Shown piece after piece: positions 16,622 through 20,885 of a DNA stretch of 64,000 nt. How positions within the stretch are numbered: position 1 is the first letter of the stretch; each line of letters starts with the position of its first letter. The DNA comes from Patescibacteria group bacterium (GTDB lineage Bacteria > Patescibacteriota > Patescibacteriia > XYB2-FULL-38-15): NCBI GenBank assembly GCA_041650995.1, contig JBAZJZ010000001.1:71891-135890 (forward strand), written 5' to 3'. Both the position numbers and the translations under genes were made by a program. Under the pieces are notes generated by a model. The model was not told the origin of the DNA and did not search any database. It worked only from the letters and a program-made list of their open reading frames with translations.

Positions 16622-17740
16622 ATGACGATTGGTATCGACGCCTCGCGCGCCAATAAAATCGAAAAAACCGGTACTGAGTGGTATTCTTATCATTTAATCC
16701 AGGAATTAAAAAAAATTACTGATCAAAAAGATCAGTTTATTTTGTATTCGCGGGAAAAATTGAGAAGTGAGTTGGGAGAATTGCCATCAAACTGGCAGAA
16801 CCGTGTTTTAAATTGGTCGCCCCAAAAATTATGGACGCAGGTGCGATTTTCCGCTGAAATGTGGCAGAGGCCGCCGGAGCTGCTTTTTGTTCCCGCCCAC
16901 ATTCTTCCAACGATTCGTCCGGAAAAAGTTGTGACAACTTGCCATGATGTCGCATTTCTCCGGTTGCCGCAAGTTTACGATTGGGCGGCTTTAAAATATC
17001 AGAAGTTAGCCGTGAAGTTTGCTATTCGCCACGCGACAAAAATTATTGCCGTTTCGGAATTTACAAAAAGTGAACTTGTAGAATTTTTTAAAATTTCTCC
17101 GGAGCGGATCGTAGTCGTGTCGAACGGTTACGACAGCGAACGGTATAAAATAATTGAGGATAGGGGAGAAGTGGAAAAAGTTTTAATAAAATATAATATT
17201 CGTGGCTCATACGTTTTATATACTGGCCGTTTGGAATTGAAAAAAAATATTCCAGGATTGATTGAGGCATTTAAAATTTTGAAAAAAAATTACAAACAGC
17301 CATTGAAATTAGTTTTGGTCGGCCAGCCGGGTTTTGGTTTTGAAAAAGTTACAAAAGCGATAATAGAAAATAATTTGTCCGATGAAATAATTATACCCGG
17401 CTGGGTGGGAAAAGACGATTTGCCATACTTAATGAACGGCGCGACAGCTTTTGTTTTTCCATCTCTTTACGAGGGTTTTGGCATTCCGGTTTTGGAAGCT
17501 ATGGCTTGTGGTACGCCGGTTGTTGCTTCTGGAATTCCCGCGCTTCGCGAGGTAGCGGGCGAGGCGGCGTATTTGGTTGACCCGTATTCCGTAGAAAATA
17601 TTGCCGAGGGGATGAATCGCGTTTTAACTGATGAACATTTACGAGAAGGTTTAAAAATCCGCGGGCTTCGGCGGGTAAAAGATTTTAGTTGGGAAAGGTG
17701 TGCGCGGGAAACGTGGAAAGTTTTAGAAAGTATAAAATAA
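16622..17740 (+). CDS. glycosyltransferase family 4 (GT-B, group 1)
   Basis: 372 aa; C-terminal EGFGIPVLEAMACGTPVVAS motif. Confidence 0.8.
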   Translation: MTIGIDASRANKIEKTGTEWYSYHLIQELKKITDQKDQFILYSREKLRSELGELPSNWQNRVLNWSPQKLWTQVRFSAEMWQRPPELLFVPAHILPTIRPEKVVTTCHDVAFLRLPQVYDWAALKYQKLAVKFAIRHATKIIAVSEFTKSELVEFFKISPERIVVVSNGYDSERYKIIEDRGEVEKVLIKYNIRGSYVLYTGRLELKKNIPGLIEAFKILKKNYKQPLKLVLVGQPGFGFEKVTKAIIENNLSDEIIIPGWVGKDDLPYLMNGATAFVFPSLYEGFGIPVLEAMACGTPVVASGIPALREVAGEAAYLVDPYSVENIAEGMNRVLTDEHLREGLKIRGLRRVKDFSWERCARETWKVLESIK

Positions 17741-17846
17741 AAAAAGAGAGGCCCGTCCGCAATTAGGATTTAGAGTCCTATTCGCAGGCAGACCTCAATG
17801 GGTGGGATAGAAGAGTCCCGAGAATCGAGACTCAGGCGGGAACGAA

Positions 17847-18101
17847 CTAGTAGAGATCGTCGGCGGGATCCTCGAGCTGCCCGCCGGTGGCGAGCAGTCG
17901 GATGTGGTCATCATCGCTGGCCCAGGCGATCGCGCGGTCGCGGTCGCGGGTCTGGCGCCAGACACCGTCGGGGTCCCTCTCCAGGTCGGCGGGGTCGTCC
18001 TCGCCGTCCTCACCACGCAGATCGGGCGGAAGCAGTTCGCGCAGTTCCTCGGACAGTTCGCCGCGGTTCAAGTCGCACTCCGCGAAACGTCGGCAAGCCA
18101 T
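17847..18101 (-). CDS. small acidic protein (about 84 aa) with high-GC, Actinobacteria-like codon usage; probable foreign gene or gene fragment
   Basis: MACRRFAECDLNRGELSEELRELLPPDLRGEDGEDDPADLERDPDG...; the three codon positions are strongly periodic (GC1 about 80%, GC2 about 50%, GC3 about 80%) in a genome that is otherwise about 38% GC; SD ggaaggagg sits 8 nt upstream. Confidence 0.4.
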   Translation of the reverse strand: MACRRFAECDLNRGELSEELRELLPPDLRGEDGEDDPADLERDPDGVWRQTRDRDRAIAWASDDDHIRLLATGGQLEDPADDLY

Positions 18102-18240
18102 TCTTCCCACTCCTCCTTCCCAACTCCGCTCGGATGAGCGAAGTGATGACCTCCTCCTGATAGCCATCCAGTTGCGTAGAAATTTTTTTCTAACCAACTG
18201 GATAATTATCAGGTTTATCCGCCGAAAAGGCGGGATTTTT

Positions 18241-18500
18241 AAAAAAAGTAGGGGCTTCAAGACTCGCGTCCATCCACCCCCTTGTCATCGCATTGCGCGA
18301 TATCTTCCCGTTACGGGAAGGGCATTCGGCTTTCCTCCCTCTGCTTGATGCGGGTGTCTGCCGCTGAATGTGGTCCAGAACACCCTGGTAGTGGCCTTGG
18401 CGGCTGCCAGCAGCGATAGCGTAATTTCGCCATCACCGTGGTCAGCGCCTTGGCCGTTTGCAATGCCTCATCGCCGTGACAGAGCTTCCCCACGTTCGGT
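18241..18500 (-). ncRNA. candidate structured ncRNA A (about 255 nt), GC-rich, identity unknown
   Basis: Minus-strand promoter TTGACA(17)TAAAGT from the 18529 palindrome; GC-rich body; ends with GGGG...CCCC hairpin plus U7 (plus-strand a7 at 18241-18247); a 74-aa ORF overlaps it, so a small protein cannot be excluded. Confidence 0.3.
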
Positions 18501-18528
18501 GCCTTTACTTTAACATATTTTAATAATT

Positions 18529-18548
18529 TTGTCAAGAGTTGTTGACAA
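18529..18548. promoter_or_regulatory. palindrome TTGTCAA-N6-TTGACAA (copy 1), providing a -35 TTGACA on both strands
   Basis: ttgtcaagagttgttgacaa; a perfect 7-bp inverted repeat with a 6-nt spacer; the identical motif recurs at 19868-19887. Confidence 0.55.
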
Positions 18549-18628
18549 AATATACAAAAAGCCCTAAGTTTATAGGGCTTTTCTTTATTCTTTATTTATG
18601 TTATGATAGGTGAATAATTAAATAAAAA

Positions 18629-19399
18629 TTGTTAATATTTATGTTGGAAAAAGAATTACAAAAATTAGGCTTATCAGATAAAGAAGCCAAGGTTTATTTA
18701 TCTTCAATGGAACTTGGCCCATCGCCGGTGCAAAGCATCTCGAGTAAAGCTGGCGTAAATCGTGCTACAACTTATGTGATGATTGAATCGCTAATCGGTC
18801 GCGGTTTGATGAGCTCTTTTGAAAAAGGAAAAAAGAGATTTTTTACGGCCGAGTCTCCAGATCAACTCCTCGCTATTCTTCACAAAGAGGAATTGGAGGC
18901 AAAAGAAAAAACGCGGCAATTTGAAGGAATTTTGCCGGAGTTAAAAATTCTTTTTTCTGCCGCAGAAGAAAAACCCCGTTTGAGATTTTTTGAGGGCATT
19001 GAAGGTCTTAAGGCTATTCAGGAGGATATATTGAAATCAAAATTTGAAAGTTTTGAAGAGGTCGTTGCTCTAGATGAATTTTATAAAATTTTTCCTCCTG
19101 ATGATAAGGATCATAGAAAAAAGTTAGCCGTTAAGACAGAAAAGATGTTAGTGAGGATTATTTATACTGGAGCTAAAGGAAAAGTTTTAGCAGCAAAAGA
19201 AGGGTTGAAAGAAAGAAGATATATTCCACCGGAAAAATTTCCGTTTTCTACAGATATTGTGATTTATGGGACTAAAGTTGCAATCGGAGTTTGTAGAGGT
19301 AAAATTATAGGAGTAATTATTGAAAGTAAAGAGGTCAGTGAGGCTTTGCGCGCGATTTTTAATTTGGCCTGGGAGGGTGCAGAAAAATATCAAAAGTAA
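18629..19399 (+). CDS. TrmB-family transcriptional regulator
   Basis: N-terminal winged HTH LGLSDKEAKVYLSSMELGPSPVQSISSKAGVNRATTYVMIESLIGRGL typical of TrmB; coiled-coil region; C-terminal effector-like domain. Confidence 0.65.
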   Translation: MLIFMLEKELQKLGLSDKEAKVYLSSMELGPSPVQSISSKAGVNRATTYVMIESLIGRGLMSSFEKGKKRFFTAESPDQLLAILHKEELEAKEKTRQFEGILPELKILFSAAEEKPRLRFFEGIEGLKAIQEDILKSKFESFEEVVALDEFYKIFPPDDKDHRKKLAVKTEKMLVRIIYTGAKGKVLAAKEGLKERRYIPPEKFPFSTDIVIYGTKVAIGVCRGKIIGVIIESKEVSEALRAIFNLAWEGAEKYQK

Positions 19400-19407
19400 A
19401 ATTAAAT

Positions 19408-19838
19408 AAAAAAAGCCCGAGATTGGTGCGCTCTTTCGCTTTGTCGCGATGGCGTTGCCACCAAATTCCCGGGCTGTGCGCCGTGGGAAAATCAGCAGTT
19501 TGCATGGTCTCCCAAGCGCGAAGATCGTCAGGATCACGTTGTTGAGTTTGTTGAGCCGTTGCCGTTGAGCGTCGTCACCCACCTTCTCCGCAGTTCGCGG
19601 TTCGTCGCTTCTGCAACCACTTCTTGCCTGTGGATTTGCCACCCCAAAACATGATCGAACCTCCTTTCGGAGGACAATATCTGAAGCAGCAAGCCAAGAC
19701 CCGAAGGCCTCAAAGCTAAGCCGCGCATTTCGGCAATTGTTGTTTGCCTCGCGGCAGTCGCTCGCTGACCTAGAAGAGTCAAGTACCCACTACAACAGAA
19801 AAGCCTCCAGTTCGCGGACGGGGAAGCCCCGTCACTTC
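19408..19838 (-). ncRNA. candidate structured ncRNA B (about 430 nt), GC-rich, identity unknown
   Basis: Minus-strand promoter TTGACA(17)TAAATT (plus 19846-19851 and 19869-19874); no convincing ORF; the 3' end is a long hairpin (plus 19415-19474) followed by U7. Confidence 0.4.
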
Positions 19839-19867
19839 TGCTTTTAATTTAACATAATCGCAGGGAT

Positions 19868-19887
19868 TTGTCAAGTCAAATTGACAA
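19868..19887. promoter_or_regulatory. palindrome TTGTCAA-N6-TTGACAA (copy 2), upstream of holB and at the 5' end of ncRNA B
   Basis: ttgtcaagtcaaattgacaa, followed by TATAAAT and the holB ATG at 19905. Confidence 0.55.
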
Positions 19888-19904
19888 ATTATAAATAAGA
19901 GACA

Positions 19905-20885
19905 ATGTTTTCTAATATTATCGGCCATAGAAATATCACAAGTTTTCTGGAAAAAAGCTTGAAAAATTGGGAAATTTCCCATGCGTATTTGTTTTATGGT
20001 CCGGCGCATTTAGGCAAAAAAACTGTGACTAGTTGTTTTGCTGAAAGCCTGCTCGGCCAGCCGATTTTAAATCATCCTGATGTTTATGAAGTTCGCCGCG
20101 AGCGCAAGGAAAAAGAAGAAAAATTAGCTAAAAATATTAGTATTGAGCAGGTTAGAGAATTTCAACAAAAATTATCTTTAACCTCCTTTTTAAATTCATA
20201 TAAAATTGGTATTATAGAAGAGGCGGAAACCCTGAGCACTGAGGCGGCCAACAGTTTATTGAAGACCCTGGAAGAGCCGACGCCGAAAACCGTGATTATT
20301 CTTCTTTCCGCGACTATTTCTGCCTTGCCGGCGACGATTGTTTCCCGTTGCCAGACTTTGAAATTTTTGCCGGTCGCGAAAGAAAAAATTTATGATCAGC
20401 TTTTGAATCTTGGGGCAAGTCGTGATGAGGCAAGAGATTTGGCGGGAATTTCTTGGGGAAAACCAGGGCTTGCGTTTGATTTTTGGAAAGCTAAAAAAGA
20501 AGAGGGTAAGGATTCGGCCATGGCAGATTATGAAGAACAGGTGCAAAACATTTTGGATTTAATGAAGGCAGAAACAATGCGCGATAAAATGAAGATTTTT
20601 GACGAGGTTTTGGGAAAAGATTCGGGCACGGAAGATTTGTTTGGTTCGTTAAATCAGATTTTAGCTCTCTGGACTTCAGTTTTACGCGACGCGGTAATGC
20701 TTCGCCACGGATGTCCGGAACTCGTGGCTAACGCCAAATTTTCTGAAGAGATAAAAAAAGTTTCCAGCCGTTTTAGCGTAGATTTTTTTCCGCGGCTTTG
20801 TCGGGAAATCCGGCGCACGGGAAAATATTTTGGAGAAAATTTAAATCCGCGTTTGGTTTTAGAAAATTTATTATTATCATTTTAA
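19905..20885 (+). CDS. holB: DNA polymerase III subunit delta-prime (HolB)
   Basis: 326 aa; AAA+ clamp-loader fold: HAYLFYGPAHLGKKT (degenerate Walker A), IIEEAETLS, SRC arginine finger motif. Confidence 0.75.
   Translation: MFSNIIGHRNITSFLEKSLKNWEISHAYLFYGPAHLGKKTVTSCFAESLLGQPILNHPDVYEVRRERKEKEEKLAKNISIEQVREFQQKLSLTSFLNSYKIGIIEEAETLSTEAANSLLKTLEEPTPKTVIILLSATISALPATIVSRCQTLKFLPVAKEKIYDQLLNLGASRDEARDLAGISWGKPGLAFDFWKAKKEEGKDSAMADYEEQVQNILDLMKAETMRDKMKIFDEVLGKDSGTEDLFGSLNQILALWTSVLRDAVMLRHGCPELVANAKFSEEIKKVSSRFSVDFFPRLCREIRRTGKYFGENLNPRLVLENLLLSF

Follow-up and report, generated by a model that had tools for sequence, protein, structure and literature searches.

A GC-rich intergenic unit beside a TrmB-family regulator gene in a Patescibacteria genome: a probable mRNA for a conserved micropeptide within a conserved RNA structure

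A GC-rich interval in the genome of a Patescibacteria group bacterium (assembly GCA_041650995.1, contig JBAZJZ010000001.1) was analyzed within a stretch of 64,000 nucleotides, which is called the window below and to which all positions refer unless a related locus is named. The interval lies between the gene for a TrmB-family winged-helix transcription regulator (Pfam PF01978) on the left and holB (PF13177) on the right. Judged from its sequence, it is a discrete, independent and monocistronic unit of the minus strand, ~432 nt in length, with a predicted promoter and a predicted terminator at its ends, and it probably represents the mRNA for a conserved micropeptide inside a conserved RNA structure. 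An earlier note on this DNA had described the interval as a non-coding RNA (ncRNA) of ~430 nt with no credible open reading frame (ORF). The discrete and structured minus-strand unit was recovered, but it was not purely non-coding, as it contained a conserved small ORF (sORF) preceded by a Shine-Dalgarno (SD) sequence; this ORF of 25 codons was located at 19652–19575. The "trmB-like" neighbor of the note was the TrmB-family regulator rather than the tRNA methyltransferase that is also called TrmB. The features of the unit outside its leader were the following:

19846–19874, minus strand: sigma-70-type promoter, TTGACA-17-TG-n-TAAATT (promoter scan; both boxes invariant across the alignment of relatives)
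19575–19652, minus strand: small ORF, 25 codons plus UGA, MFWGGKSTGKKWLQKRRTANCGEGG (SD and protein conservation)
19478–19519, minus strand: hairpin of the 3′ untranslated region (UTR), GCGCUUGGGA ... UCCCAcGGCGC (single-sequence folds of relatives)
19408–19475, minus strand: intrinsic terminator with a long, branched and GC-rich stem, AGCCCGGGAAU...UCUCGGGCU, before a U7 tract (folding; relatives)

Relatives of the unit were collected in three ways. A genome scan with holB gave five metagenome-assembled genomes of Patescibacteria/Falkowbacteria, in which HolB was 82–85% identical and the gene order was the same. A pattern scan of metagenomes with the most conserved block of the unit gave nine loci, comprising five true homologues and four chance matches (L013, L015, L018, and L019), which lay in unrelated sequence without flanking RNA elements and were discarded. 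Homologues of the TrmB-like protein and look-ups of their contigs added further loci, down to 52% TrmB identity. Wherever enough sequence was available, in 17 of 17 related loci with a TrmB identity of 52–90%, the element was found downstream of the TrmB-like gene and convergent with it.

The SD sequence GGAGG (19664–19660) was separated from the AUG (19652–19650) by 7 nt, and each of the 15 distinct sequences had GGAGG or AGGAG a few nucleotides before its AUG. The ORF was kept as a protein in these 15 sequences, down to relatives whose neighboring TrmB-family regulator was just 52% identical. Its length ranged from 22 to 37 amino acids (aa), and from 22 to 29 aa in most relatives, always in frame. 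The peptides shared the core motif R-x-[TVI]-A-[NH]-C-x-[ED]-G-G-stop, and the strongest constraint was on the last ~10 residues; the N-terminus was variable in both length and sequence. Examples among the relatives are MFWGAHGSGSRWFQKRRTANCGEGG, MYWGGKDKKWLQKPRTEHCGGEGG, MMHKVWKRRRWRWLIRPVANCDEGASS, and MKRFMIPRIAHCNEGCPREALG, and the distant relatives L034 and L032 encoded MYMTRGMRRFMIPRVAHCSEGG and MRTQVLVNFWVRKGVLRAVAHCKDGA, respectively.

The reading frame was preserved, with no in-frame stops compared with 12 and 5 in the other two frames. The Cys was invariant through both TGC and TGT, one Gly was invariant through all four of its codons, and one Arg column was coded by AGA, CGA, CGC, and CGG. 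Pairwise differences per codon position were 178/221/387 among the nine closer sequences, and the synonymous share of the differing codons was 0.395 in frame vs. 0.062 and 0.177 off frame; these pairwise counts are phylogenetically non-independent and come from a codon alignment that was guided by the peptide. The excess of third-position and synonymous changes indicated that the ORF is under purifying selection at the protein level. In addition, the peptide was retained in L030, L031, L032, and L034, where the large leader described below is absent or unrelated in sequence (5′ UTR short or unrelated). Thus, the ORF would be the oldest part of the unit.

The peptide was basic and polar, with a basic, aromatic N-terminal part and the invariant Cys. 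It had no match in NCBIfam, Pfam or the PDB sequences. When 5.8 billion proteins were searched with a profile whose first row was the 40-aa TTG-extended ORF, only five ORFs with the same motif were returned (P0121–P0125). They were labeled "hypothetical protein" or unnamed, and four of the five carried spurious N-terminal extensions (e.g., ...MKRFMIPRVAHCSEGC). The interval between TrmB and holB was empty of called genes in all 13 loci for which gene calls were retrieved, and a literature search found no account of this RNA or peptide. Patescibacteria, also known as CPR, have very small genomes, in which a large part of the genes lacks an assigned function. Here, a conspicuous GC-rich block that resembled an ncRNA appeared to be an unannotated micropeptide gene, for which the nearest database entries were a few mis-started ORFs. 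It provides a new small-protein family (core PR[VI]A[HN]C-x-[ED]-G-G) and a candidate for a new cis-regulatory RNA absent from Rfam. It also calls for caution, in that screens for GC-rich intergenic regions in AT-rich genomes may catch the mRNAs of sORFs.

Three other identities of the peptide were considered and rejected. A type I toxin-antitoxin pair, in which a hydrophobic membrane peptide is combined with an overlapping antisense RNA, was not supported, as the peptide had no hydrophobic stretch, the plus strand gave no fold signal, and the promoter scan listed no plus-strand promoter-like site in 19408–19845. For a regulator and signaling-peptide pair of the RRNPP type, which consists of a secreted pro-peptide and a TPR-type receptor-regulator, only the adjacency was similar; the neighbor was a TrmB-family winged helix-turn-helix (wHTH) protein, and the peptide had no N-terminus resembling a signal peptide. 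The idea of a ribosomal protein (Thx-like) had no positive evidence.

At the 5′ end, the promoter consisted of TTGACA (19874–19869), a 17-nt spacer and TAAATT (19851–19846) on the minus strand, with the TG of an extended -10 element. It matched the consensus at 10 of 12 positions and ranked first in the promoter scan, which places the inferred transcription start near 19839. At the other end, the A7 run at 19408–19414 (U7 on the minus strand) abutted a long, imperfect and branched hairpin at 19414–19475, so that a GC-rich stem stood directly before a U tract as in intrinsic terminators. A simple terminator scanner missed this stem because it is long and branched. All relatives kept the U tract and the outer stem (GCCCGGG/CCGGGC), and the terminator ended 9 nt beyond the stop codon (19397–19399) of the convergent gene at 18629–19399. 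The earlier note had already placed the promoter, a palindrome over its -35 box, and the terminator hairpin with its seven U residues correctly. The GC enrichment that it reported also held, at 54.8% (19408–19845) vs. 41.9% for the window. The minus strand folded better than shuffled sequences (z = -3.24; 0 of 100 shuffles as good), and the plus strand gave no fold signal against shuffles (z = +0.19).

Among the outcomes that the note had named as counting against its proposal was that the region was an AT-poor intergenic remnant such as a decayed foreign gene. Several overlapping ORFs of 40–151 aa in the GC-rich stretch could be taken as traces of such a gene. However, the long ones (82 and 151 aa) had no Pfam match, and the region had no DNA similarity to the phage and plasmid collections searched. 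The synteny and the constraint on the promoter, helices, sORF, and terminator in all relatives contradicted this explanation, which we regard as scarcely credible.

The leader between the transcription start and the ORF contained the following features:

19817–19835, minus strand: 5′-terminal hairpin P1, GUGACGGGG-CUU-CCCCGUC (fold; 100% paired, three of six pairs changed on both sides)
19669–19808, minus strand: rod-like leader of nested helices P2–P9 (RNAalifold, single folds, covariance model)
19716–19748, minus strand: tag-like frame, part of the leader helices P8/P9 (interrupted in close relatives by indels of 1, 2, and 3 nt; helices 8 and 9 covary)
19685–19717, minus strand: nearly invariant 33-nt block A-GCUUUGAG-C..GG-CUUGGCUUGCUGCU in the 3′ strand of the rod (alignment of relatives)
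19660–19675, minus strand: anti-SD/SD hairpin, (GU)CCUCC-GAAA-GGAGG (relatives and folding)

The rod was ~150 nt long in the RNAalifold consensus of the seven closest sequences. It was closed by the pairing of the 5′ GGAGGC (19808–19803) with GUCCUCC (19675–19669), and five of the six closing pairs had changed on both sides. The same rod architecture was obtained in 14 independent single-sequence folds with substantially different 5′ strands. A covariance model built from the seven closest sequences matched all other long-leader loci with 40–64 bits and found one site only in the window. In the alignment fitted to this model, the pair counts of which lean toward the structure by that fitting, 94.9% of the cells formed pairs and 17 of 50 pairs had changed on both sides, a result equaled by none of 500 shuffles; when the partner was slid by 1–3 columns, pairing fell to 38–51%. 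The earlier note had proposed a comparative alignment as a check, and the compensatory changes that it looked for were seen in the leader. They support the conclusion that the leader structure is conserved. The leader carried 1- and 2-nt indels among the relatives, and the ORF showed no loss of frame.

The block at 19685–19717 was nearly invariant across the groups of relatives, and the strand with which it pairs varied. It could also fold into a local hairpin, GAGGCC-UUCG-GGUCUU, in which 97.6% of the positions paired; this was not better than shuffles (72 of 500). A local UUCG-capped hairpin is a possible alternative conformer.

The identities that had been suggested for the RNA, a transfer-messenger RNA (tmRNA) precursor or RNase P RNA, had no support from Rfam or ARAGORN. 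With the gathering thresholds of Rfam 15, the whole window gave nine tRNAs only, and at E ≤ 10 the region 19300–20000 gave just chance-level matches of 14–18 bits. ARAGORN found nine tRNAs and no tmRNA in the window; the note, too, had found no tRNA-like 3′ end. The short frame GGC AAA CAA CAA UUG CCG AAA UGC GCG GCU UAG, which the note had compared with tmRNA tags, was present at its position in the leader; nevertheless, it was rejected as a tag because of the frame-breaking indels in relatives. The unit resembled a tmRNA in its length of ~430 nt, high GC content, own promoter and terminator, and a short frame ending in A-A-stop. It differed in having no tRNA-like domain (acceptor stem plus T-arm), no Rfam match, and no conservation of that frame, and tmRNA was rejected on these grounds. 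RNase P RNA was rejected, as the bacterial RNase P covariance models (P4 and the conserved regions CR-I to CR-V) gave no match at gathering scores or at E ≤ 10. In a 6S RNA, the two ends of the entire molecule together form a rod with a central bubble. Here, the rod covered the 5′ 170 nt only and was followed by the SD, the ORF, and the 3′ UTR, and 6S RNA also had no Rfam match. More generally, the unit could be a pure structured ncRNA of one of these kinds (a 6S-like rod, tmRNA, or RNase P RNA) or a novel small RNA (sRNA), with the ORF being incidental. The conserved rod, the strong promoter and terminator, and the GC enrichment would all fit with this. However, beyond the failure of the known models and of the tag frame, the amino-acid sequence of the ORF was conserved and its codons changed synonymously, even between lineages whose leaders have no sequence in common. 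We consider a pure ncRNA highly improbable.

The position of the closing helix linked the leader to the ORF. Its CCUCC was 4 nt upstream of the SD and fully complementary to it, and in all long leaders the SD was 4–9 nt downstream of CCUCC. An equivalent anti-SD/SD hairpin was found in 15 of 15 leaders, including a CUCUC/GAGAG version in L033. The unrelated leader of L034 repeated the same triple as GUGAGGA / UCCUCAC / AAGGAGGA. CCUCC could pair either with the 5′ GGAGG in helix 2 or with the SD, and as these pairings are mutually exclusive, the leader was read as an SD-sequestering RNA switch. The SD-free and SD-paired folds were predicted to differ in energy by only 0–5.4 kcal/mol. With the rod closed, the SD would be free and the sORF would be translated; with the rod open or occupied, CCUCC would form a hairpin with the SD and initiation would be blocked. 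Translation of the sORF is thus probably gated by the leader in this model.

Known SD-sequestering leaders comprise RNA thermometers, ribosomal-protein leaders, and the expression platforms of translational riboswitches. The leader analyzed here was similar to these in that a pyrimidine anti-SD pairs with the SD or with upstream purines, the helices covary, and the structure stands directly before an ORF. Unlike them, it had no Rfam match, its target was a monocistronic ORF of 25 codons, and the large rod was found in one lineage only.

Transcription of the unit is probably linked to the neighboring TrmB-family regulator. The evidence for this was a palindrome over the promoter:

19867–19888, unstranded: perfect 22-bp palindrome TTTGTCAA-N6-TTGACAAA, 0 mismatches, overlapping the -35 box

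Only two copies of this palindrome without mismatches were found in the 64-kb window, at 19867–19888 and 18528–18549, one on each side of the TrmB-like gene. The second copy was 80 bp upstream of that gene and overlapped a twin minus-strand promoter, TTGACA-17-TAAAGT with TG (18535–18507). The arms were invariant or nearly so among the relatives, and the distant loci L034 and L032 had related palindromes or half-sites close to the promoter of the sORF. Two identical palindromes of the form 8-N6-8 on either side of a dimeric wHTH regulator are the textbook arrangement of an operator pair. Since the identical palindrome lies beside the regulator gene and at the promoter of a second small protein, the regulator is the likely binder, and the two copies are suggested as candidate shared operators. 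Bound at the -35 box, it would control transcription of the sORF unit. It is likely that the regulator and the two small-protein genes form one module, a compact regulatory arrangement of three genes (regulator, sORF unit, and second small-protein gene) linked by conserved synteny and the shared palindrome.

The second GC-rich block (17750–18549, minus strand), which is headed by the twin promoter, was read as an mRNA as well, with a ~400-nt leader and an SD-preceded ORF at about 18101–17847. This ORF encoded a conserved acidic protein of 62–88 aa, ...DPADL..DGVWR..DRDRAAD..RLLATGGQLEDPADDLY, which had no Pfam match. For the region 17200–18700, the Rfam search at E ≤ 10 gave only matches at chance level.

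The identities of TrmB and HolB to the proteins of the window were incongruent (L001–L005 and L021–L034 vs. 18629–20885). For example, TrmB and HolB were 85 and 61% identical in L024, and 57 and 85% identical in L004. As the two identities are decoupled, the TrmB/RNA module seems to have its own history. This suggests that related genomes have exchanged the TrmB/sORF module or that it has evolved in them at unequal rates.

In locus L032 (3693–4509, minus strand; 59% TrmB identity), the sORF appeared to open an operon. It was 33 nt upstream of a same-strand gene for a 172-aa protein of unknown family, which was followed by a gene for a hydrophobic peptide of 51 aa.

The 3′-UTR hairpin and the long terminator were predicted in every relative that was folded singly. 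The base of the hairpin (CGCUUG.../...CAGGCG) was conserved in sequence, and its upper stem was group-specific (GGGAGA/UUUCCC vs. GAAGAG/CUUCUC). This structure was read from single-sequence folds, as the variable loops misaligned in the MAFFT alignment and made the RNAalifold consensus unusable.

In four loci (L001, L002, L004, and L033), the ORF had only 5–6 codons, MGDxG(D)-stop. The TrmB-like proteins of these loci were 57–58% identical to that of the window and their HolB proteins 82–85%. All four loci kept the leader, the SD hairpin, the terminator, and the spacing between the stop codon and the 3′ hairpin. The Gly, Asp, and Gly codons of the short forms varied only at synonymous third positions (GGA/GGT/GGC, GAT/GAC, and GGA/GGC/GGT).

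Several points weigh against the reading of the unit as an mRNA for a micropeptide within a conserved and SD-sequestering structure. First, the short ORFs with a fully conserved leader and 3′ UTR mean either that the RNA has a role beyond the 25-aa peptide, or that the last codons alone matter. Second, the near-invariance of one strand of the rod exceeded what simple maintenance of the stem explains. Third, covariation was counted in just 15 related sequences, which had been aligned by fitting them to the structure of the model itself. Fourth, the energy comparison of the SD-free and SD-paired folds is a thermodynamic prediction that includes some coding-region pairings. Finally, the arms of the palindrome equal the -35 consensus TTGACA, so the palindrome could reflect plain divergent promoters rather than an operator.

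One explanation ranks as the strongest of the alternatives and still as unlikely: the sORF would be a cis-acting leader or arrest-type ORF, for which the arrival or pausing of a translating ribosome at ...C-x-E-G-G-stop, and not the free peptide, matters. The position of the ribosome would then remodel the downstream hairpin and terminator, and thereby set the read-through into TrmB antisense or into downstream genes, as in L032. The focus of conservation on the last ~10 codons beside the stop with a variable N-terminus, the synonymous-only changes in the Gly/Asp/Gly codons of the short forms, and the retention of the 3′-UTR hairpin and terminator in all forms are consistent with such an arrangement. 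So are the 9-nt distance from the terminator to the convergent regulator gene and the 33-nt distance from the L032 sORF to its 172-aa neighbor. However, most loci have no same-strand gene following the sORF, and no alternative antiterminator pairing was demonstrated. In addition, the four genomes with short forms are closely related, so that few independent events underlie the restriction of their changes to synonymous positions. The peptide showed no resemblance to known arrest motifs.

Examples of leader peptides with a regulatory role, or of arrest peptides, are TnaC, ErmCL, and the SecM type. The sORF resembled them in its very short length, its C-terminal conservation beside the stop, the conserved RNA structures downstream, and the 5–6-codon form in some genomes. 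It differed in that a same-strand downstream gene was usually absent. Its motif also differed from RAPP and RGPP, the motifs given in the abstract of PMC12992588, which names the RAPP-type class.

The near-invariance of the 33-nt block, with its variable partner strand, raised a second alternative, which we consider improbable and rank after the arrest-type ORF. The RNA could have a dual function, combining the peptide with a riboregulatory or protein-binding role through the 33-nt strand or the 3′ UTR. The retention of the leader and 3′ UTR where the ORF shrank to 5–6 codons also points in this direction, and the unit has the GC content and folding stability that characterize structured RNAs. 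On the other hand, the invariant 13-mer had no convincing target in the window, where only 13-mers with two mismatches were found (chance expectation 1.45, standard deviation 1.15, including the self match), and the distant relatives keep the peptide without the leader. Well-known dual-function sRNAs that encode small proteins are SgrS/SgrT, RNAIII/delta-haemolysin, and SR1/SR1P. The unit is comparable to these as a structured RNA of a few hundred nucleotides with its own promoter and terminator and a short ORF inside. It is unlike them in having no base-pairing target found and no relation in sequence or family, and here the peptide was the most widely conserved part.

A more elaborate model can be proposed tentatively, although it is improbable as a whole. 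In this new kind of RNA switch, which would be coupled to a peptide, the lineage-specific leader of ~150 nt would sense a signal and gate the micro-ORF. The C-terminal ...C-x-E-G-G-stop, reducible to MGDxG-stop, would act in cis on the ribosome and set the fate of the 3′ hairpin and terminator, and with it the antisense transcription into the TrmB-family gene. The regulator would bind the shared palindromes and close an autoregulatory loop.

Two further observations concern the DNA around the palindromes. The copy at 19867–19888 may also provide the -35 element for transcription of holB in the divergent direction. In 19869–19905 of the plus strand, TTGTCA-16-TATAAA ended 8 nt before the ATG of holB (19905), and the holB mRNA may have little or no leader. 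At 18556–18583, a bidirectional terminator-like hairpin, AAAAAGCCCTAAGTTTATAGGGCTTTTT, separated the upstream palindrome from the start of the TrmB-like gene, and the position of this hairpin is odd if the palindrome region also drives the TrmB-like gene.

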